A DNA stretch of 55,704 nt from a virus (taxonomy: Duplodnaviria > Caudoviricetes). Numbering within the stretch: position 1 is the stretch's first letter; every line of letters starts with the position of its first letter. A program made the position numbers and the translations under genes. The stretch is from IMG/VR virus record IMGVR_UViG_3300041964_000008, positions 1-55,704 of that record; one strand, given 5' to 3'. This document shows positions 6,168-49,436 of the stretch, piece by piece. A model generated the notes under the pieces. That model worked only from the letters and a program-made list of their open reading frames with translations, was not told the origin of the DNA and ran no database searches.

Positions 6168-6214
6168 AAGAGCCCGTGTAGGCTCTTCTATTATAGGGCT
6201 TGTTATTTCTACGA
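6168..6214 (-). promoter_or_regulatory. 26-bp motif (6189-6214) directly followed by a hairpin (6168-6187)
   Basis: TCGTA-N6-ACA-N5-TATAATA, then AAGAGCC-TACAC-GGGCTCTT-GCTTTT. Confidence 0.7.
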
Positions 6215-9200
6215 TATGAACCACTCGAAATCGCCGAACTTCTGGATGGTCTTGACGGCCTCATCAGCAAGTCTTTCGAAGTACGACATGTTGATGTTGC
6301 CGACTGCTTTCTCACCCAGCTTTTCGACTACGTCGGCCTCGAGCCACAAATATCCCTTAGTGCCGCTAACAGCGTAGTGCTTGTCATCCACGATGCGATA
6401 GAGTGAGGCACCGTTGGCGCCTTCTCTCACAGGGACAAATCTCCCTGTGCGACCGATGAACTTCAAGCTCTTCTTCTCAGGGACTACGGGCTTGTCATGC
6501 TCGAAGTCAAGATATAGAGCGCCCTTCTGTACTTGCTTCGTCTCACAGAAGTCATCGAATACGACTGGCTCATTGCTGAACAGCTTCTTGTACACAAATG
6601 GGTGCTGGAACTGCGCACCCACTGCTTCCCATTTGCCGTCAGACTTCTTCGCAATATAGACCGCGTCATTCACAAGGCAGAACTTGTCGTAGGTAGCCTC
6701 ATGCTCGAAGTCGTACCCATACTTCTCACCAAAGCGAACCACGAACTCACAGATCTCAGGTGTGGCGTTCGGGATCTTGATGGAGTCTGTCTTGATATGA
6801 GCGACGGTGAAGCCCTCAGCCTGCACAGCGTGCTTGAGATCGATCATGAACAGAGCACCGCGCTTAGCAACGATGTTGTCCTGGTTACGTCGATCTCGGA
6901 AAGGCGTGTCGAACTTCGCACTTGTTAATCCATAAACCGTGTTGATCACAATCTTTAGAGCATACGCAAGAGCCTCGGCATGCGCGGGATCCTCAAGATA
7001 TGGAACCAGCTTTCCGTTAAGCATCTGTCGCGCATTGTTATAGTCTCGATGCTTGATAGCCATACGAGCATTCTTCAGATCAGAGAACTTCGGCGTGTAC
7101 TCGTTTCCGAACAAATTCAGCTGTTCGATGGATGTAGGATGCATGGACGCGATGTCCAATACCGCCACATTTTCGTACATACCAGGCTCAGAATAGACGT
7201 ATCCTCCCTCGCCAGGCTCTTCATCGCGATAGTAACTCTTGCCCAATTCGAACCGATAACCAGGAAAGTCCTTAGCCAAGTTCGTGTACTTGAACTGCGA
7301 TTGAGGGTTTCGATCCTTGCCAAATATGATTCGAGCGGTGTGCTTCTGCGTTGTGTCATTGACTGTCAAACCGCTGAGTTCGGCAAGAATCTGACGCGCG
7401 ATGAAGTCCTGCTTCCGTGCATTGAACGTGGCCTCAGTTGTCTCCACGTCATTCACACAGTACTCAACGACCTTGTCCCACTGGTCCTTTGGAACTGGCT
7501 GATCCCAAGGAATATCGAGCTCCACGTGACGAAGCCCTAGCTCGATCTGGAACTTCTTCAGGCTCTGCTTCTTCGAACTGAAGTCGTAGATATCAGTGTA
7601 GGAGATGTTGAACGCCTCACCGAACAGAGCATTGCGATCGTTGTTGATGATCTTCTGGCTCAGCTTGTACAGTTCCTCATTGCTGTAGCCCATGAATCGA
7701 GCGTAGAGGATATGGTTGTCGTACCGGCGATTGTTGAAGCCGATCAGACGGTAGCCTAGAAGAGGCTCCACGTCCTTACCAGGTGGGTTGATCATCTTCT
7801 GGACTTCAGTCGCACCTTCGTACTTCCAGCACACTACGAAGAGGTTAGGATATACCTCCACGTCAAAGAACACCAAGCGCATGTCCTCTGGACCGTTCTT
7901 GTCCGTCACACCTGGGTGGTAGATCGGATCCTTTTCCATGAGGTCGACAATATCCTTGCCCTGGAACTTCATCTGTTGAACGATCTTCAGGCACTGCAGA
8001 GCCTGGTTGGTGCTGTTGTTCGCGAAAGCCATGATCTTCGGCTTCAAATCTGTCAGGTCATACGAGAGACCATCTTCGTATGCCTCGTCCATGATCTTCT
8101 TGATGAAGTCGATCGAGGACTTTGTCCTGGATGTATCTCCTTTCGAAGATTTCGAGCAATCAGGTCACGCATCCCCTTCTCGCTCTGAATGGTCTTTACA
8201 TCCAGCATCTTCTTCTCCTTCAGGGGGAGTCCGGAGGATATGATTCCAATAGGTACGCCGTTACACTTAGTGAGGTCGACGACGTAGAGAGCTATCTCCT
8301 GTGAAGACCTTAACTTCAATTCCTTCAGAGAAGACATTAGAGAGTCGGTCAACATCTCTTCGTAACGGTAATGGAGATGTACTCCGCTCCCGGACTTACT
8401 AAGCTCGGCGTAAGTAGCGGGCCAGACACTTGCGGCTTCGAGATTCCGTTCAAGGGATTTCTCTCCATCCTCGCCTCTCAGATCAAAGTCAATGACAATA
8501 TGATGTCCGGGACCTTGACGAAGTGCAACTCTGACGTGTCGATATCGTCGAGTCTCGTCTCAACCTCGGACCACTTCTTCTTGGGGGTCTCTGCCTTAGT
8601 GGCCCCCTGGGCCGGCATGTTATCAACTCCCAGTCCAGCAAGGACTCCGTCTGATCTAGTACCAACGAGAAGCTAGGAGCGTCTGCAGACGGTTCCTTGA
8701 ACTTGTTGGCGTTGAAGCCCTCGTAATAACTGCGTACAAGCTTCCCGTCACGACGAGCCCGATCCTTAAACGAATCGAAGTAGTTCCGCAGCTCTTCACG
8801 GAACTTGTACTTAGGCATGATCCGCTCGATGCCTGACTCTCCGCAGTACTCCTTGTACAACGCATAGGCCTGCTCCAACGAGGTACCGTCTTGAGCCTTG
8901 AATATGTCGTAGTAGGCCTCGATGAAGTTGAAGAACACGTCCGTCTGAAGCATCATCTCAAGAGGACGATATGCGTTGTAGTAGTTCTTTCCCATGGATC
9001 GATACACCTCAAGGCAGTGATACGCAATAGCCCCTAGTTGAAAGTCGATCTGCGTCATGAGAGTGTTGAAGTGGTTGTTCGGAATATAAACACCTGTCGG
9101 GTGAACATCTATGAGCCGTCGAATGATGCCCGACTTCGAGTCCGAGATCTTGACAGGTTGGTTGGTACCCATGAAGAGAAATGCATTGACCTTGGCCGTG

Positions 9201-9983
9201 TAACTCGACTTGAACTTCTCGTTCATCGTCATGTCTTCATGAGATATGATCGAGTTCAGCCTCGCGTTGTCCTCAATTCGAGACAGGTCACCGTCATGCT
9301 GAATGGCAGCAATCGGATTTCCCTTGAAGACCTCTGTTGCGACTGGCTGTTGCTACTACCAAGAGCCTTTGCTTCAAACGTCGTGGTATAACCGATGAAC
9401 AGCTTCTCGATGATGCGCAGGATGGTGGACTTGCCTGAGGCAGGAGGACCATACAGAACGATGAACTTCTGAATATCCTTGGCATCTCCTGCAACAATGG
9501 CACCAATAGACCATTCGATCTTGGCACGCTCCTCGACGGAGAAGAGCGTGCCGACAAGCTCATCCCAGCACTGTAGTCACCTGGTTCCAACGCGTAGGGA
9601 AGTCGTCGACTGACGTAGTCGTTCTTCTTCACAGGCGTGTTGGCAAAAGTCAGATTCACATCCAGCTGGTGGCTGTTGTCGCCGATCTGACCTATGAACT
9701 TCTGGAACTGCGCCCAACTCTGTGTTTCATACGAGCGCATGTCCTTGACGTGCAACTTCTGACCTGCATAGACCTCTTTCTGAGATTCTTGATGTAGTTC
9801 CTCATCAATCAGTCGGGCAACGTCGTACTCATCATGTGGACCACAGCCCCTTCTTCTCGTCCCAGATGGCATAGAAGTTTCCCCCTCTAACCATGAGATC
9901 AGTCGATCTTCCGACAGTGAAGCCAGGATATAGTTCAATGATTCCGTTCTTCGTCTCCTAGTTCGAATCTGGTAGAAATCCAT
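6209..9983 (-). CDS. Fused SF3 helicase / AEP primase / family B-like DNA polymerase (about 1250 aa, broken by several apparent indel errors)
   Basis: Walker A GPPASGKST (~9424-9450); AEP HIVIDFDL (~8418-8441) and SKSGSGVHLHY (~8368-8400); Exo FDVE, GFNNRRYD, YCVND; Pol DIASMHP, KIVINTVYG, IKTDS. Confidence 0.8.
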
Positions 9984-9999
9984 CCACACTCCCCTGCTT

Positions 10000-11624: not shown

Positions 11625-12539
11625 CTAGATCTTGTTCCAGATGGGTCCATCGACATTGAAGTCGAGGAAGATTTCGCCTTCAGGTCCCACGACCATCTCG
11701 TGGAACTGGTTCAACTCGTGATTGCGGAACACCTGGAAGTCGACGAAGCCGTCTCCAGTGTGACGCTCAGGGTTACGCGGATCAAATATCCAACCCGTCA
11801 CTGCTCCGGCCTTCGTGTCGGGCATACCGAGCTCACGGTATACCTCGTTCAGGAACAGGTGTCCCTTAGCACGAAGCTTGTCGTTGCAGTAAAGCTGAAC
11901 CGTCCTCAGGAACATCACGTTGTACGAGGACTGCTGCTGCCAGTTGGCATTCGAACGATCAAATATCACAGCGTACGGCTTCCGATTGCCGTCACCTGCG
12001 ACCTTCACGTTCTTCGTCACAGGACCTTCGTCAGTGTCCTCGACGATGGTCTTGTCGGTAGCACCGAATCGGTACTCCCGGTCCTTGTCAGCGCCGACGT
12101 CAGCGATGACACGAGCCCGGTAGTCGTTGAAAGCCTCCGTGGTGAGAGTAAGCGCTGCCGTCAGGCCGGCGTTCCTCTTCATAAGGATGCTGTGTGAACC
12201 AGCGAACATGCCCAAGGACAACAGTCCAAGGCCGATCGCCGGAGCATAGAGACGCGCCATCTGAGCGGTCGCCTCCATGTAGATGAACAGCATGTCCTTG
12301 TTGTACGCGGAAGTCGAGTAGACCTCCGTTGAGTGCCTCAGACGTCCAGCCTTGTGCTCCTTGATCTTATTCTCGATCAAAGTCAGCTCCGACTCAACGC
12401 GAAGCGTCGCCCGACAAGCCATGACCGTCGAGCCGATGGCGAGTGCTACGCCACCGGCGAATAGCAGAGTGGGGGAATTCTTCTGTGCGAGAATGACTGG
12501 TCTAGCCAGCATTCGTGTCAAGCCTTCGGGCAACTTCAT
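11625..12539 (-). CDS. DUF6353-like phage protein with N-terminal hydrophobic segment
   Basis: KNSPTLLFAGG...LFLNEVY..LG...GW pattern; resembles 16827-17617. Confidence 0.65.
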   Translation of the reverse strand: MKLPEGLTRMLARPVILAQKNSPTLLFAGGVALAIGSTVMACRATLRVESELTLIENKIKEHKAGRLRHSTEVYSTSAYNKDMLFIYMEATAQMARLYAPAIGLGLLSLGMFAGSHSILMKRNAGLTAALTLTTEAFNDYRARVIADVGADKDREYRFGATDKTIVEDTDEGPVTKNVKVAGDGNRKPYAVIFDRSNANWQQQSSYNVMFLRTVQLYCNDKLRAKGHLFLNEVYRELGMPDTKAGAVTGWIFDPRNPERHTGDGFVDFQVFRNHELNQFHEMVVGPEGEIFLDFNVDGPIWNKI

Positions 12540-12704
12540 CTCTGTCTCCTAGACATACGTTTTGGGATTGGAGCCGTTGTAAAACGGCGATAACTTGTGT
12601 CTTTGGCATGTTGTCGACCTTGGCGTACCACTGGTCGTCAGCAAAAGCCGTTTTCAATAGTCGCCTCTCCTCTGAAGCTCCTACACGGGTCATGGGTCCT
12701 CTGT

Positions 12705-13367
12705 CTAGTCGTTGATTGGTTCGGGTCGGGGGAGATTGAGCAAATATCCGCCTTCACGAGTTCTTTCAACGCTAGCGCTGCGTAGATCTGTCCAGCCCCA
12801 CCTTTGATCGGTGTATTGGGCACCTACGCCGAGAAATTCATAGAGATCCGCGACTGTGACAATATCGAATTTGACGAGGATTGCGCTGAGGTTATCAAGG
12901 ACATGTTGAGCCTCAGCACGAGATTCCAGGATGATGTCCCTGAAATCGAATGTTGCACGTGAACGATCCGTCGGCTGCTTGTTCGGGATCCTCGGATCAG
13001 ACAAGGGTGAATATGATCCGATAGGAGCCTTACCGATGTTGTGGTACTGCATGCTTCCGAGAGGCTGACCTCCATACATCCGAGGAGCACCTGGATGTCC
13101 GTAGAGTCGTTGGCTCACAGCAGCATTGACCGACTCAAGGATGAGATGCTTTCCCGAAGGCACAAGAATATCCGTCCAGACCGTCATGAAGACGCTCCTA
13201 CTGTCTGGCCCCTTGATGAATATGCTCTTGAAGCGGTCCCATCGTGATCTATCACGCTGGATTACCTTGCCAACGACGATCTTCGAGATGTTCTTCTCTT
13301 CCACCTTCGGGATCGAAGACTTTTGTCGTTGGGTATGACTCTGACTAGGAAATTCACTTTCCGTCAT
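12705..13367 (-). CDS. Hypothetical protein
   Basis: 220-aa ORF; VADLYE..G...WGW motif. Confidence 0.75.
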   Translation of the reverse strand: MTESEFPSQSHTQRQKSSIPKVEEKNISKIVVGKVIQRDRSRWDRFKSIFIKGPDSRSVFMTVWTDILVPSGKHLILESVNAAVSQRLYGHPGAPRMYGGQPLGSMQYHNIGKAPIGSYSPLSDPRIPNKQPTDRSRATFDFRDIILESRAEAQHVLDNLSAILVKFDIVTVADLYEFLGVGAQYTDQRWGWTDLRSASVERTREGGYLLNLPRPEPIND

Positions 13368-16662: not shown

Positions 16663-16688
16663 CATTAGAGGCCCTGTTTTCTTTGCGA
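16663..16688 (-). promoter_or_regulatory. 26-bp motif
   Basis: TCGCA-AAGAAA-ACA-GGGCC-TCTAATG. Confidence 0.8.
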
Positions 16689-16826: not shown

Positions 16827-17617
16827 TCACTGCATGTGGCTGTAGTTCCTGAGAGGGGCTGCATCGAAATCAAGCGAGATACACGGCCGTCCGTCATCGG
16901 CCAGAACTGGCGTCGGATCGATCTCGAACTCGTCACCCATGGCCGTCCAACCGACGTGATCGGACAACTTGGTGGCTGAAATACCGATCAGCTCGTAGAA
17001 GTCGGTCAACGACGCCTCATCGTTCTTCAAACGCTTGGCGTTGACCTTGTTCTGAGCATCCAGAATCGTGTGCATGTCACTGTAGAAATATCGCTCGGAC
17101 ATGGGGTCGAAGCACAGCACATCTCCTCCTCCCGTGATGATGATCTGTGCCTTGTTCGGAGGATGCCGATCGAACTTCTCCTTCGCCACCTCTGCACGCA
17201 CCTTCGACTCCTTGGTCAGGCCAAAGTGCTCTTTCACCTTGTCCTTGTACTCGGAGTGAGCACGCTGAGAGAGCGCAAAGGCGGTTGCCATAGCTGCTAC
17301 ACGCTGCGTGTTGATGCGATTCGCCATGACGATCGAGGCGATTGTTAGCGCTCCTGCTCCAATGGGCGGAATATAGAGCGTCCACAGAAGTCGTGTCTTG
17401 TCCATCCAGTCGACAGGCTTCGCGGTCCTCTTCGATGCCGTAGCATCTTTGGTTCGAGCGATGCGCTCCATCTGGAGGATGCCGGCGGACTTGTATGCAG
17501 CCCGTCCGGTCAAATATGCGGTTGCGACCGTGCCGAGTACTCCGATACCCGTCAGATGGTCGGTGAGTTGTCGGTGATGAGCTTGCCTGCTTTGTAGCTG
17601 AACTTGGAAAAGTCCAT
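16827..17617 (-). CDS. DUF6353-like protein, second paralog (5' frameshift near 17555)
   Basis: NSPT..TGIG start; SLTDFYELIG...GW...DGRPC end. Confidence 0.6.
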
Positions 17618-18016
17618 GGGGGTCTCCTTGTATAGGGGTCAGCTGCTCTTGCGGGTGAGTGTTCGGATCGTTCGAATGGCTTCCGCAAGAAGAATCAGCT
17701 TCATGCGATCGCGCCGGGACAGAATGAAGGTCATGGCGAACTTCATGCAGATCACTGCCCGATCGTACGTCGTTCGAGCGAAGTACAGACGCACGCCAAG
17801 CCAGAGAAGGCGTAAGCGTACGAGGAATATCATCGGCGCCTCATTCGCGGACGAAGATCCAGATGAGCCAGAGCCCACCCGTGAGCAACGTCATGATGAC
17901 GTCGCCCAAGAAGGCAAGGCATCCGTACTGCTCGAACGTTGGTCTGACCGGACTCGACGTGGCATAGCTCGTCATATCTCATGCGGATCCTTCCAATAGG
18001 GGGGGGTCGAAAAGTG

Positions 18017-18100
18017 TGAGAAGATGTATACGATGGATGGTCGTATCACTTCAAGTTCAGCGGCCGGGTTAGGGCTCGATGACTCATAAGTGTCTTCTCA
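18017..18100 (-). ncRNA. Candidate structured small RNA A
   Basis: Follows motif 18099-18124; terminal stem TGAGAAGA/TCTTCTCA; internal CACTT/AAGTG and ATACGA/TCGTAT stems; downstream T tract; no RBS or ORF. Confidence 0.65.
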
Positions 18101-18134
18101 TTAGGGGGCTTGTTTTTTTCGCGAGTCAAAAATT

Positions 18135-18260
18135 TGAGGAGAGGTATACGGCCCAACGAAAGCTGTATCGTTAACTAGCTGCTTGGTACTTGCTAGCACT
18201 CCGGGTAGGATTCTAACCTACACATTCGTGTCTCGGAAACTCTTTCGAGTTCTCTTCTCA
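18135..18260 (-). ncRNA. Candidate structured small RNA B (four internal hairpins, one T-arm-like)
   Basis: Follows motif 18259-18284; terminal stem TGAGAAGAG/CTCTCCTCA; GTAGG-TTAGAAT-CCTAC; T5 tract after the stem. Confidence 0.7.
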
Positions 18261-18291
18261 TTAGAGGCCCTGTTTTCTCTGCGAAACATGT

Positions 18292-18366
18292 AGACCATGT
18301 ATTCAATGACAGGCTTTAACTGGAATGATCTCTGCAGCGAAGTAATTGCTGAATTGCATGGTCTCA
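18292..18366 (-). ncRNA. Candidate structured small RNA C
   Basis: Follows motif 18365-18390; terminal stem AGACCATG..ATTCA/TGAAT.CATGGTCT. Confidence 0.55.
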
Positions 18367-18391
18367 TTAGAGGCCCTGTTTTCCTTGCGAA

Positions 18392-18429: not shown

Positions 18430-18576
18430 CTACTTCTTGAGGGAGCGGACGGTCTTCTTTGTCGCTCCACCAAGCACTCGAACCACGAGCAGGATGAGTA
18501 GCACTGGGATGAGCAGTGCGATCATCATGATCGAGATATCGAAGGCGTTGGCGGAGATCGTATTCCAGATTTCCAT
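18430..18576 (-). CDS. 48-aa membrane peptide (MEIWNTISANAF...)
   Basis: GAAAGGA RBS; motif at 18603-18628; long hydrophobic helix. Confidence 0.75.
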   Translation of the reverse strand: MEIWNTISANAFDISIMMIALLIPVLLILLVVRVLGGATKKTVRSLKK

Positions 18577-18666
18577 GGGTGTCCTTTCAGATTGTATGTC
18601 TTCATTATAGGGCTGGTAAATATCGCGAGGAAAACCTAAAGCCCATGTAGGGCTCTAGGCTAGAAC

Positions 18667-18816
18667 CTAGTGCTTCTTGCCGAGGTCTTTGTCCATCTCG
18701 TTCAGGTGCTTTCCGGCTTCCTTCATGAAGTCCAACCAGCCGTAAATCGCCATAGCGATTCCGACGTAGGTTAGACCGTTCCGGATCTTGCGGAAAGTGA
18801 ATCGAAGTGTCTTCAT
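18667..18816 (-). CDS. 49-aa membrane peptide (MKTLRFTFRK...)
   Basis: GAAAGG RBS; motif at 18841-18866; hairpin at 18634-18659. Confidence 0.75.
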   Translation of the reverse strand: MKTLRFTFRKIRNGLTYVGIAMAIYGWLDFMKEAGKHLNEMDKDLGKKH

Positions 18817-18900
18817 TCTCGTGCCTTTCTAGTAGGGTTCTATTATAAGCCATGTAGAATATGCGAAAACCCAGACCCCGTGTAGGGGCCTAGGCTCAGA

Positions 18901-19068
18901 TCAGAGCTCGATGACGGAACTGCGGTTGCGTGTCCGAACGAACCACACACAGCCGAGGCCCAGAGTCAACACGATGACGAGCACGAGTATGGATGTGCGT
19001 CGGCGTTGGAAGAGTCTGGGTCGGATGACGGTGTGGTGGCGGTCGAATCCATAATTGGAATTCAACAT
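18901..19068 (-). CDS. 55-aa membrane peptide (MLNSNYGFDR...)
   Basis: GAAAGGA RBS; motif at 19098-19123; hairpin at 18870-18894. Confidence 0.7.
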   Translation of the reverse strand: MLNSNYGFDRHHTVIRPRLFQRRRTSILVLVIVLTLGLGCVWFVRTRNRSSVIEL

Positions 19069-19209
19069 GAGTGTCCTTTCAATGGAGGATTGATCTTCAT
19101 TAGACGACTTGTATAAATTGCGAAGTGATTTTTCCGAACTTCCCCCCGGGGAATTTTTGATATCAAATTATGAAATTTTTAGACAAAATGTACGCTTTGC
19201 GAAACCTAA

Positions 19210-40781: not shown

Positions 40782-43162
<2,381 letters not shown>

Positions 43163-46730: not shown

Positions 46731-49436
46731 TCATCCGCCTAGCTCCTTCTTCAGTGTGGTGAGGGAGACGCCTAGGGCAGCAGCGATCTCGCCTTGGGTG
46801 TAGCCCTGGTCAGCCATCTGTTTCGCTCTGTTGATCTTGGTGGAGGTCATCAGTTTGGTTGAACGGGGGGTTGCAAGAGCCTTCACGATGTCGAGGTCGG
46901 CATTGTCTAGGATTCGTGCTAACTTGGTAGGGCTGATTGCCCCAGCCTGCACGGCTTCCCACTCACGGGGGGTAATTTCGATCTTTTGTTTGCCTGCCCC
47001 CATTCGCATTCGTGCCTCAGTGAGTGCTTGTCCTTCAACCTTCTTGCGTGTAGCAGGGTCCATGTTTGGATTGGAGGCCACTTTAGCAGCGATGGCGGTA
47101 TTTGCAATGACCTGGGCCTGTCTTTCAAGGGGGGCATTGCGTTGCGCAATCTTTAGCTTTGCTGTTAGTGAATCAGCTTCAGCCTTGAATGCCTTGTTAG
47201 CCTGATTGTCATAAGGCTTGTTCTTGATCGAGAGAGTAGACAGACGAGCGTCATTGGCTAAGGCCTTCATTCGATTAGAATGATCGGCATAGATCTTCTC
47301 CATGACTGTAGGGTTAGGCCGTGATGTCAGAGTGTGAGCATCGTTGGTCTCAGCCAACTTAACAGACTGCTCTGTTAGAACCTTACGCAAACCTGTCTTA
47401 GTGAAGTAGTGCTCACCAGTCTCCTTATAGACCTTCTCACCAGTCTTAGGATCTATAGGTCCACCCTCAGAAGCCCTTCGCAGTCTACGCCTAGGTACAT
47501 CCGTTCGAGACGTAGCCCTAGAGATCAGTGTAGAGGATCCACCAGGACGACCACCTGTCTCTTTAGCCTGATACTTACGCTGTAGAGACACGATGTTGTT
47601 GTCTATGAAAGACTGCTTGTAGTTCAACTCATGGTTCACAGCATCGATGACAACCATAGCGTGACGTACAGCAGCAGCGATCTCATCAGGCTTAGCCTTC
47701 TTAAGAGTCATGTCTGTGATGAGGTTAGAGACAGACCCCATCTCAAAGCCCTTCTCACCTTCAGTCATCACCTTCATACCATCAAACTTAGGGTAACTCA
47801 GCTTGGCATCAAAGTCCTTTAGACCCTCTAATCGAGCAGTGGTCTTTATCTTGGGATTAGCGATAGGGTTCGGTATCACAAGGACTGTGTCACCATCAAA
47901 GTCTGCACCAGACAGGTGTCCAGCAACCTTGCTATGGATGCCCACTACATCCTTAGCTAGAGGACCAATGAGCTTTACAGCCTCAGGTTGACGATTGTTG
48001 ACTATCAGTTCAGGGATCTCGAACGTACCACCATGAGGGAAGCGAATCAGAGCGACTCGCTCTCCATGATCGTAGTTGGGCGCATAGATCTCTGTTACCT
48101 TCATGCTGTCGATAGGAAGAAGCACTTGTGTGCTCTGACGTGGCAGCTTGTGTGCCGTTAGCTCTACAGCTAAGGAGTCAGCACTATCAGCATAGCTCTC
48201 AAGAAGCTTCTTCTTGACTGTGGGGTTGGTGAGAGCCTTGATCTCGTCAAGTTCCATCTTTCGCTGTTCATGAGTCATAGACAATTGAGTTTTAGCCAGA
48301 ATAGGACTCTGCTTAGACAGAACTTGTGTAGAGATGACGTTTCTCCACTTGTCCCAGTCACCTTCCTTGTTCACAAGGTTCATTGCAGAGGTAACTTCGA
48401 GAATCGGCCCATCTGGATACTCACGTTTTCCGATTTGCTTGATAGTAGCCCCAAAAGGATTCTCAGGATCATCGGAAATCGGCTTTAGGACAGCTAGCTT
48501 GTCCTTGTACTTAGGATCGCTCTTAAGCTTGGGTGTATGGAATTGAATGTCCGTACCACGAGGAAGATCGTCCTTGTACATGGCCATACCCTTGATGTAG
48601 TGAGTACCATCAACCAAAATTCGAACTTGTGCGTAATTGGCACCTCCCAAAGAGAGGTCATCCTTACCAGGACGCAAATAGACCAATCCATCAAGCTTAG
48701 ATCCACCATCCTCACCGTACACGACCTTGATTCGACTTGAACTTACGGAAAGCGGAGACTTGGTTTGGTAGTACGACCGTCCACCGTCATCAGAGATCGT
48801 CGTGATGTCCTTGATCTGACCGAGATCTTTGACGAGGTCCTTATACGTAGTTCCAGGCTTAGCCAACACCTTAATAGTGGTCTTCTTACGACCACCAGTC
48901 CCGATTGTAGGTGTCTGAACTAGCTCATACGCATAACCTTCGGCTTTTAGGATGCTAACGGCCGTAGCAAGAAACTCCTTGCTCACATAGCGGTGATTCT
49001 CGACACCTCTACCAACATCGATAGCCCCTTTTTCCGCAATCTGGTCACGAAGCATTTGAGCAGTCGCTTTGAGGATGCTGACCTTCTCTAATTCGCCTGG
49101 CTTGAGAAGGCTTCGAACAGAAGACTCGTTAATCCCCATCTTCTCGCCAATAGCGATGTTCGACAGACCTTTATCCTTCAACTTCTGAGCAGTCGCGATG
49201 TCAGCTGCCTTTTTGGCGTTTCGAGCAATGGTCTTCGTGATTCTCAGATCTGTGGTGGACATATCAAGGCCTTTTGCGATTTGAAGATCCGTAAGACCCT
49301 TATCCTTCATCTCCTGGATGTAATCCGTGAACATCTTGCTTCGCTTGGCCTCAGTTCCACCAGAACCCCAAGGATAGCGACCTGACTTTCGAAGAATGCC
49401 GTAGTGTGCCAGATGTGCGCTTTCATCAATGATCAT
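46731..49436 (-). CDS. Putative single-subunit two-barrel RNA polymerase with HTH domains
   Basis: QVR-x7-IKG, LIRFPH and SGADFDGD (47889-47906); two N-terminal and one C-terminal HTH-like segments. Confidence 0.8.
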   Translation of the reverse strand: MIIDESAHLAHYGILRKSGRYPWGSGGTEAKRSKMFTDYIQEMKDKGLTDLQIAKGLDMSTTDLRITKTIARNAKKAADIATAQKLKDKGLSNIAIGEKMGINESSVRSLLKPGELEKVSILKATAQMLRDQIAEKGAIDVGRGVENHRYVSKEFLATAVSILKAEGYAYELVQTPTIGTGGRKKTTIKVLAKPGTTYKDLVKDLGQIKDITTISDDGGRSYYQTKSPLSVSSSRIKVVYGEDGGSKLDGLVYLRPGKDDLSLGGANYAQVRILVDGTHYIKGMAMYKDDLPRGTDIQFHTPKLKSDPKYKDKLAVLKPISDDPENPFGATIKQIGKREYPDGPILEVTSAMNLVNKEGDWDKWRNVISTQVLSKQSPILAKTQLSMTHEQRKMELDEIKALTNPTVKKKLLESYADSADSLAVELTAHKLPRQSTQVLLPIDSMKVTEIYAPNYDHGERVALIRFPHGGTFEIPELIVNNRQPEAVKLIGPLAKDVVGIHSKVAGHLSGADFDGDTVLVIPNPIANPKIKTTARLEGLKDFDAKLSYPKFDGMKVMTEGEKGFEMGSVSNLITDMTLKKAKPDEIAAAVRHAMVVIDAVNHELNYKQSFIDNNIVSLQRKYQAKETGGRPGGSSTLISRATSRTDVPRRRLRRASEGGPIDPKTGEKVYKETGEHYFTKTGLRKVLTEQSVKLAETNDAHTLTSRPNPTVMEKIYADHSNRMKALANDARLSTLSIKNKPYDNQANKAFKAEADSLTAKLKIAQRNAPLERQAQVIANTAIAAKVASNPNMDPATRKKVEGQALTEARMRMGAGKQKIEITPREWEAVQAGAISPTKLARILDNADLDIVKALATPRSTKLMTSTKINRAKQMADQGYTQGEIAAALGVSLTTLKKELGG

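Follow-up and report, generated by a model that had tools for sequence, protein, structure and literature searches.

Introduction

What is made from promoter-like sequences that lead into no gene? The question is raised by a short region of the virus record IMGVR_UViG_3300041964_000008, a 55.7-kb phage genome (93% complete) with its genes on the minus strand. The whole record of 55,704 nucleotides (nt) was analysed and is called the window here; all coordinates refer to its minus (coding) strand unless stated otherwise. Downstream of a series of small membrane-peptide genes, three consecutive copies of a repeated motif head three units, C, B and A, that lack an open reading frame (ORF). An original prediction had described them as a tandem array of promoter-driven, structured small RNAs forming one family. 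We find that unit B, judged by its covariation, belongs to a large and new RNA family. The three units are probably RNA cassettes independent of one another, of a type that is widespread in a single actinophage supercluster that has a YonO-like putative RNA polymerase, giving rise to discrete RNAs closed by a stem between their two ends (a clamp), with leaky termination.

Results

An RNA family at unit B

Relatives were collected as fetched loci (L numbers) from viral contigs, metagenomes, genome contigs and cultured phages, and covariation was counted in alignments of related sequences that had been fitted to a model. On the syntenic contig L013 there is a unit with two sequence blocks in common with unit B; the hairpins that separate the blocks differ by compensatory changes. 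The two-block pattern matched 9 viral contigs, 37 metagenome stretches and 7 genome-contig stretches; one of these seven is real (L063, a 69-kb contig binned in a metagenome-assembled genome) and the other six were rejected as chance matches lying in bacterial coding sequence. A covariance model, R1, built from six members of the short subtype, was searched against the fetched loci and gave 40 matches, 28 of them distinct. In the alignment of these 28 sequences, which was fitted to the model and whose two conserved blocks are invariant by ascertainment, standard pairs occupy 97.1% of 661 cells and 23 of the 25 pairs are double-changed; when the partners were slid by 1-3 columns as a control, 36-45% of cells were paired.

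A further 80 loci were fetched through the neighbouring 44-amino-acid (aa) peptide gene alone, independently of the RNA (the peptide-anchored set). R1 made 20 matches there, 18 of them distinct, in which 98.8% of 414 cells are paired and 22 of 25 pairs are double-changed (slid controls, 39-45%), so that the covariation check on related-phage loci proposed with the original prediction yields compensatory changes. The apparent invariance of the two blocks in an earlier alignment (A5) was discarded as an artefact of the fetch pattern, for the blocks co-vary in the peptide-anchored set. The two sets bring the B family to 46 distinct sequences. Compensatory changes maintain it in phages that have diverged to only 26-44% identity in the adjacent DUF6353 protein, and no reading frame is conserved in the relatives of B, where changes keep base pairs and not codons.

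R1 matched the window at 18242-18128 (51.2 bits; E 2e-12 to 3.5e-12). Unit B is of the long subtype (Table 1), and its extra 5' hairpin is not part of R1; the model placed its first helix inside that hairpin and so its match covers only this interval. Taking the window sequence together with the alignments, P1, P2, P4, P5, P6 and a pseudoknot between the linker and the P6 loop can all form in unit B, and the 3' part of the fold runs from P6 through an ACC(C) junction and the 3' strand of P1 to the U tract. In the pseudoknot, a linker tetranucleotide (CGAA in the window) pairs with one in the P6 loop (UUCG). Pairing is found in 60 of 64 cells with eight double changes (five of G-C to U-A, two of A-U to C-G and one of A-U to U-A), against 14-61% paired and 0-2 double changes in the slid controls. 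A competing local hairpin, CAC-GAAU-GUG, was rejected: it is broken in Gordonia phage Secretariat, whereas the pseudoknot covaries. The 7-nt loop of the T-arm-like hairpin resembles a T-loop (U at position 1, A at position 5) in 25 of the 46 distinct members. The GATAC...CGTATAC element that had been seen in both A and B is indeed present in both; in B it corresponds to helix P6, the stem of which is not the same in the rest of the family.

Rfam 15 was searched at its gathering thresholds and by E value (up to 10 for the window), and no family was obtained for A, B or C from the window, ten B-bearing loci or three cultured-phage loci; the earlier impression that A, B and C belong to no known family agrees with this. 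The idea that the three units are one family fails, since the B model finds only B in the window and leaves A and C unmatched at E up to 10. On the evidence of covariation, unit B is a real structured RNA that belongs to a large family with five covarying helices and a covarying 4-bp pseudoknot. The family is new: it is absent from Rfam 15 and previously undescribed.

The B family extends to cultured phages. Secretariat, the sole match among six cultured-phage loci searched, scored 92.9 bits with R1 in its gp37/gp38 gap, and scores of 88.6, 85.3 and 72.4 bits were obtained for Schwartz33, Gravy and Rhodococcus phage ReqiPepy6. With the Secretariat unit as query, blastn matched 42 GenBank records (38 Gordonia and 4 Rhodococcus). 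Among the 30 rows listed, 27 span the RNA part and 3 the promoter part only, and no annotated feature lies under the match in the listed rows except in two from Secretariat, where the membrane-protein gene gp37 is named under the second matching piece. A megablast search of the window against phages gave no match. The main texts of the publications found on these phages (PMC9671010; 10.1101/842583) do not mention the RNAs; their supplements might hold motif or transcript data.

Paired ends at sites without a gene

The repeated motif consists of a TCGC core, a 13-15-nt spacer and a YNTAAT hexamer followed by GA; at units A-C it reads TCGC-N14-YCTAAT and then GAGA. It occurs 17 times on the coding strand of the window and 3 times on the other, against a mean of 3.8 for both strands together after shuffling. 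At 14 of the 17 coding-strand copies, a ribosome-binding site (RBS) and an ATG are found about 20-45 nt further on; the remaining three copies are those of units C, B and A. Here, 74-132 nt follow without an RBS and an ORF of at least 30 aa, and the first bases of each unit body pair with bases 73-124 nt downstream, at its end. This pairing is as the original prediction had it, over 8 bp in A and in C and over 8 positions in B, including one A.C mismatch. The short T tract ascribed to all three units exists in A, where it follows CAC, and in B, where it follows AAA; unit C has no tract of its own, only the TTT that opens the next motif. The clamp stems of 8 bp are thus accompanied by U tracts of 4 (A), 5 (B) and 0 (C), in an assessment for intrinsic terminators whose scanner is blind to loops of more than 8 nt. 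The main text of the Vardy genome note describes a 50-bp motif that contains a TATAAT element and lies among small transmembrane genes; it mentions no RNAs (PMC9671010).

The clamp was tested at 137 distinct strict promoter sites from the window and the loci, promoter and ORF classes being assigned by regular expressions and a stem being sought between the start region and the sequence 35-170 nt downstream. In this set, in which B relatives are over-represented (the B pattern had been used to fetch 46 loci), a Watson-Crick closing stem of at least 7 bp was present at 43 of 55 ORF-less sites against a shuffle expectation of 4.2, but at only 5 of 82 sites with an RBS and an ORF of at least 30 aa, where 2.8 were expected. 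Stems of at least 8 bp closed 31 of the 55 ORF-less sites (1.1 expected). Each ordinary cassette, the three just upstream of unit C included, ends differently, in a local GC-rich hairpin with T's that continue into the next motif, and not in a 5'-3' clamp. Clamps are specific to ORF-less sites.

The same picture emerges from the peptide-anchored set. At 32 of 76 distinct peptide loci the pattern located no motif within 420 nt. A recognisable motif lies no more than 200 nt from the peptide start in 33 distinct loci, of which 27 have long leaders and 6 plain ones. A clamp of at least 7 bp closes 18 of the 27 long leaders (1.6 expected), yet these leaders, all of them before one peptide gene, fall into 23 unrelated sequence clusters. 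Clamp sequences vary between units with their complementarity kept, a change in the 5' arm being tracked by the 3' arm, and the G.U pairs in the clamps are compatible with the sense strand only. The turnover of modules at this one locus is very high.

A putative phage polymerase and the point of transcript initiation

The phage encodes a 901-aa helix-turn-helix (HTH) protein with a full-length match to phrog_4291 (E 0) and full-length relatives in 250 phage records; the hosts of those phages include Arthrobacter, Gordonia, Streptomyces, Curtobacterium, Rhodococcus, Microbacterium, Lactococcus and Faecalibacterium. Proteins of this type have been presented as putative YonO/crAss-like polymerases and as a signature of this phage group in a preprint whose main text does not contain the word 'promoter' (bioRxiv 10.1101/842583). 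The repeated motif may be the promoter of this YonO-like polymerase.

The clamp bears directly on where transcription begins. Its 5' strand begins immediately behind the hexamer, takes in six to eight bases and covaries with the 3' strand, so the RNA must include those bases. Transcription from sigma-70-type promoters starts about 7 nt after the -10 hexamer, and a start at that distance would leave the 5' strand of the clamp out of the transcript. Either a phage polymerase starts right after the hexamer or the clamp exists only in read-through transcripts. We infer the former, because the clamp pairs at the first six bases covary and the G.U pairs fit the sense strand only. Such placement of the start would make the YonO-like polymerase and its promoter experimentally approachable.

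Unit A, unit C and the downstream peptide operon

The structured character claimed for all three units holds for B through covariation and for A through folding energy: the fold of A has a z score of -5.35 with flanks and -4.60 without, and none of 200 shuffled sequences was as stable. Unit C is weakly structured (z -1.41 to -1.45; 21 of 200 shuffles as stable). The support for A and C comes from folding energy and positional analogy. Their interiors have no sequence relative in 154 loci, and a scan of viral contigs with the pattern of the A hairpin gave 0 matches. A clamp-plus-two-hairpins shape like that of A does occur at the same position upstream of the peptide gene in L001, L002, L078, L093, L103, L108 and other loci, in leaders whose sequences are unrelated to unit A; between the homologous units of L078 and L001, the second hairpin differs by a compensatory change. 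Among 20 folded leader units, preselected for having a clamp, 16 have z scores of -2.8 or below.

Downstream of unit A there is no promoter motif before the 44-aa peptide gene, nor any from there until the next motif at 16664, so the 44-aa gene, the next gene and the DUF6353 gene can be transcribed only through A, possibly also from B and C, and the stops must be leaky. By its position, unit A is also the 5' leader of this peptide operon. The place of a riboswitch or cis-acting leader, in a 5' untranslated region (UTR) with no intervening promoter, is occupied by A and by 22 of the 28 B relatives, and not by B and C in the window. The 44-aa membrane peptide belongs to phrog_29296 and has more than 424 relatives in viral contigs; in the window and in L075-L154 the peptide is 35-50 aa long with a conserved ...TGGLWLIWIFVRE... 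and is usually preceded by a clamp-closed leader and not by a plain 5' UTR.

Unit C is the weakest of the three units. The 22-nt core of its motif is identical to that of the unit B motif and of the motifs at 16664 and 1340. A contig recovered in run X1 joins position 18255 to 18362 and so skips 106 bases, which are unit C; the joint falls within the 22-nt identity between the B and C motifs. Some natural genomes thus lack C. The joint also reveals the route by which cassettes come and go, recombination between promoter repeats accounting for the gain or loss of cassette C. The original view of these units as promoter-headed, ORF-less cassettes is borne out here.

Related units with tRNA-like and multi-hairpin folds

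Other loci carry different modules in the same kind of cassette. In L008, L011 and L012 an ORF-less unit scores 35.7-39.2 bits against the Rfam tRNA model (RF00005; threshold 29 bits), with a 17-nt insert in its anticodon loop and no call by ARAGORN. Gordonia phage Vardy has a unit in its gp39/gp40 gap that scores 40.7 bits with the tRNA model, has an anticodon arm with a 4-nt loop cap and is followed by another promoter. In ReqiPepy6 an annotated 'tRNA-OTHER' (42.1 bits) likewise has a 4-nt loop cap and a clamp-extended acceptor and stands directly after the promoter motif; immediately downstream of it comes a B-family RNA headed by a separate motif (L156 569-816; record 41206-41453). Read from the sequence, this pair is a tandem RNA array like that of the window, in a cultured phage.

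The D and T arms are present in the tRNA-like units, and the clamp makes their acceptor helix longer, with U's continuing from its end; a 7-nt anticodon loop and a free 3' acceptor end are missing even here. These units keep the tRNA elbow, and charging or decoding is not plausible for them. ARAGORN called no tRNA in the window, and in 40 loci its single call was an ordinary tRNA-Lys in L018, far from any unit, none of the units there being called. The window units did not match RF00005 either at the gathering threshold or when E values up to 10 were allowed. In a further class of module, two or three copies of one hairpin and loop lie inside one clamp (L121 1035-1119 and L124 1113-1190; also L109, L148, L045 near 1466 and L035 near 1560). 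These modules look like multivalent protein-binding sites.

Vardy has, in addition, an unannotated 295-nt gap between gp52 and gp53 (L069 ~12640-12850) that is without the promoter motif and contains a long-range inverted repeat of ~25 nt around ~110 nt; it may be another structured RNA.

Genome setting

From 54.7 kb downward, the gene order is small genes, the 901-aa HTH protein, helicase, terminase, portal, protease, tape measure, minor tail, holin (20155-19751), the membrane-peptide cassettes, the three-unit region and the replication genes. The large terminase is of a standard type. This one genome has two paralogous DUF6353 proteins, of 228 aa (16827-17513) and 304 aa (11625-12539). Among the replication genes, the primase/polymerase homolog is spread over three ORFs (9989-9294, 9232-8489 and 8092-6209, within 6209-9989) that match consecutive stretches of one PHROG profile (1-143, 256-464 and 658-1285); relatives annotate it as a single gene of ~1300 aa. 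The split could reflect an interrupted gene, an intervening element or assembly errors. The features of the three-unit region are collected in Table 1.

Table 1. Positions of the features discussed in the text.
Feature	Position	Strand	Remarks
Putative RNA polymerase, 901-aa HTH protein	46731-49436	(-)	putative YonO/crAss-like two-barrel RNA polymerase; DFDGD at residue 512
Three ordinary cassettes	18430-19127	(-)	motif, RBS, ORF for a small membrane peptide and hairpin terminator in each; the ORFs are 19068-18901, 18816-18667 and 18576-18430
Motif of unit C	18391-18366	(-)	TCGC core, 14-nt spacer, TCTAAT hexamer
Unit C body	18292-18365	(-)	clamp arms 18364-18357 / 18299-18292; no U tract
Motif of unit B	18285-18260	(-)	
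Unit B RNA	18259-18128	(-)	long subtype of the family; U tract (AAA, then TTTTT) 18135-18128
Unit B P1 (clamp)	18259-18252 with 18143-18136	(-)	read from the sequence and long-subtype relatives; outside the R1 match
Unit B extra 5' hairpin	18251-18238	(-)	read from the sequence and long-subtype relatives
Unit B P2	18237-18234 with 18203-18200	(-)	encloses the linker and the T-arm-like hairpin
Unit B conserved 12-nt linker	18233-18222	(-)	pseudoknot strand 18228-18225
Unit B T-arm-like hairpin	18221-18205	(-)	5 bp, 7-nt loop
Unit B P5	18196-18175	(-)	
Unit B P6	18168-18146	(-)	pseudoknot strand 18160-18157
Motif of unit A	18125-18100	(-)	hexamer CCTAAT
Unit A RNA	18010-18100	(-)	clamp, long hairpin and 6-bp hairpin with 7-nt loop; then CAC, TTTT
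Unit A clamp	18100-18093 with 18024-18017	(-)	
Unit A T tract	18013-18010	(-)	
44-aa membrane peptide gene	17975-17841	(-)	RBS GGAAGGA 17994-17988; region 17841-17994
228-aa DUF6353 gene	16827-17513	(-)	same promoter-less stretch, downstream

Discussion

Our findings point to a way in which a phage could make small RNAs from cassettes that contain no gene. A phage-specific promoter would start each transcript, whose first bases (GAGA...) would pair with a segment 55-130 nt downstream. The resulting 5'-3' clamp would enclose a structured module and, with the U-rich tract that comes after it, would double as a stem like that of an intrinsic terminator, at whose U tract transcripts would end. The expected products, with paired ends, are RNAs of ~132 nt from B, ~90 nt from A and ~74 nt from C. 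Their locked ends should protect them from end-dependent decay, while the clamp and U tract would stop part of transcription; with termination leaky, the RNAs would be both products and leaders, and unit A both a small RNA gene and an attenuating leader. The RNAs would bind proteins, as mimics of a tRNA elbow or a hairpin or as decoys, in preference to antisense pairing; the longest antisense match to the phage's own coding strand is 11 nt, which is the chance level. Protein binding seems the most likely function in trans in view of the tertiary fold of B, the tRNA shapes without an anticodon, the repeated-hairpin modules and the high turnover of modules at one locus.

Several observations weigh against these proposals. 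If the host sigma-A were to use the TATAAT-like hexamer with the usual spacing of ~7 nt, the 5' strand of the clamp would not be transcribed from its own promoter. The U tracts are short or separated from the stem (CAC and then 4 U in A), C having none, and efficient termination is excluded, for the downstream operon needs read-through. The energy of C is not unusual (z -1.4), and C is absent from one natural variant; A and C are without homologs, and folding energy is the sole source of their folds. T-loop-like loops are limited to 25 of 46 B members, and no RNA-binding or tRNA-related partner protein was found among 30 window ORFs scanned with Pfam. Finally, 22 of 28 distinct B members lead without a new promoter into an RBS and an ORF of at least 17 aa (20 of 28 when at least 30 aa is required), a position that fits a purely cis-acting leader equally well.

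That last explanation, in which the units are attenuators or riboswitch-like sensors gating the membrane-peptide operon, the clamp and U tract forming a conditional terminator and the short RNA being a by-product, is rather unlikely as a full account but has much in its favour. The stretch from unit A through the 44-aa gene to 16664 is without a promoter, long closed leaders precede the peptide gene at 27 of the 33 peptide-anchored loci with a recognised promoter (the other 6 being plain), most B members occupy a leader position, and the junctions, pseudoknot and conserved loops of B resemble an aptamer. It sits poorly, however, with the arrangement in the window, where B and C are each followed by another promoter, as is the tRNA-like unit of Vardy; in 3 of 28 cases a further promoter comes after B, which is therefore able to stand alone, and the genes downstream of B differ between members. 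Twenty-three unrelated clusters among 27 leaders of one peptide gene are hard to square with one ligand, and tRNA-like and repeated-hairpin modules are unlike sensors.

The units might instead be decayed cassettes, promoter-terminator shells that have lost their peptide ORFs and have no RNA function. Unit C, with its fold no better than many shuffles, its missing U tract and its absence from a natural variant, looks the part, and neither A nor C has relatives; but an empty shell would hardly be conserved as B is, by compensatory change beside a diverged DUF6353 protein, nor would clamps be confined to ORF-less sites when ordinary cassettes terminate in local hairpins, and we regard this account as very improbable. 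Least probable of all, and scarcely to be credited, is the production of leaderless or tiny peptides. Leaderless translation is common in Actinobacteria, and an 18-codon frame in unit C begins with an ATG 7 nt past the hexamer. The ATG of the alternative 49-codon frame lies inside the promoter hexamer and is common to most motif copies, which argues against a gene; there is no RBS, neither frame is conserved, base pairs and not codons are preserved in B relatives, and C itself is dispensable in nature. We prefer the reading of the three units as independent, clamp-closed RNA cassettes with leaky termination.

A bolder form of the cassette reading can be entertained, although we think it unlikely: that the phages hold a hypervariable arsenal of RNA modules (tRNA-elbow mimics, the B RNA, multi-hairpin RNAs), locked by clamps and transcribed from the first base behind a phage-polymerase promoter, and that these serve as decoys for host proteins, namely defence or housekeeping enzymes directed at tRNA or other RNA. 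Were it true, the arsenal would be the RNA counterpart of the accessory peptide cassettes, and the covariation of the clamps would provide the first definition of a promoter and start site for the YonO-like polymerases of siphoviruses. A well-supported RNA family with five helices and a pseudoknot, absent from Rfam 15 and unannotated in dozens of cultured phages of a teaching collection, is in any event testable at once, and a whole phage supercluster appears to keep interchangeable RNA cassettes beside its peptide cassettes, including RNAs shaped like tRNA that cannot plausibly decode.

Known RNA systems offer partial parallels. Among phage tRNA genes, the nearest are the sister units that exceed the tRNA gathering threshold with D and T arms, one of them annotated as tRNA-OTHER in ReqiPepy6, and the 5-bp hairpin of B has its T-loop-like 7-nt loop in 25 of 46 members. 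In contrast to tRNAs, the window units are not called by ARAGORN or Rfam, and the sister units have no 7-nt anticodon loop and an acceptor that the clamp extends and that leads into a U tract in place of a free CCA end, which makes decoding implausible. Bacterial Y RNAs of the YrlA type are tRNA mimics bound by Rsr, and resemble our units in having paired ends as a closing stem, an internal tRNA-like module and a similar size; here, however, there was no match to a Y RNA in Rfam, and Pfam identified no TROVE/Rsr or RtcB protein among 30 window ORFs. No Rfam match to the pRNA of phi29 type was obtained.

Riboswitches and attenuators share with these units a promoter-proximal fold and a U tract followed by an RBS and gene, and B is multi-helix and pseudoknotted; the units differ from them in that the terminator stem uses the very 5' end of the transcript, in that they are found in tandem and as stand-alone elements, and in the many unrelated modules that occur before the same gene. 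Small RNAs of the CsrB/RsmZ type are multivalent protein sponges, which some sister modules recall with their two or three copies of one hairpin loop, but GGA motifs are absent and the window units have no repeated hairpin. In type III antitoxins of the ToxI kind the likeness breaks down, for only the promoter parts repeat here and the unit bodies are unrelated; no toxin-like gene of the ToxN kind was seen among the neighbours scanned. Phage T4 encodes species 1 and 2, small stable RNAs of ~100-140 nt within its tRNA cluster. Compared by description only, these too are structured phage RNAs without an assigned function that lie beside tRNA-like genes; unlike them, each unit described here has its own promoter and clamp terminator and is part of a hypervariable accessory locus.

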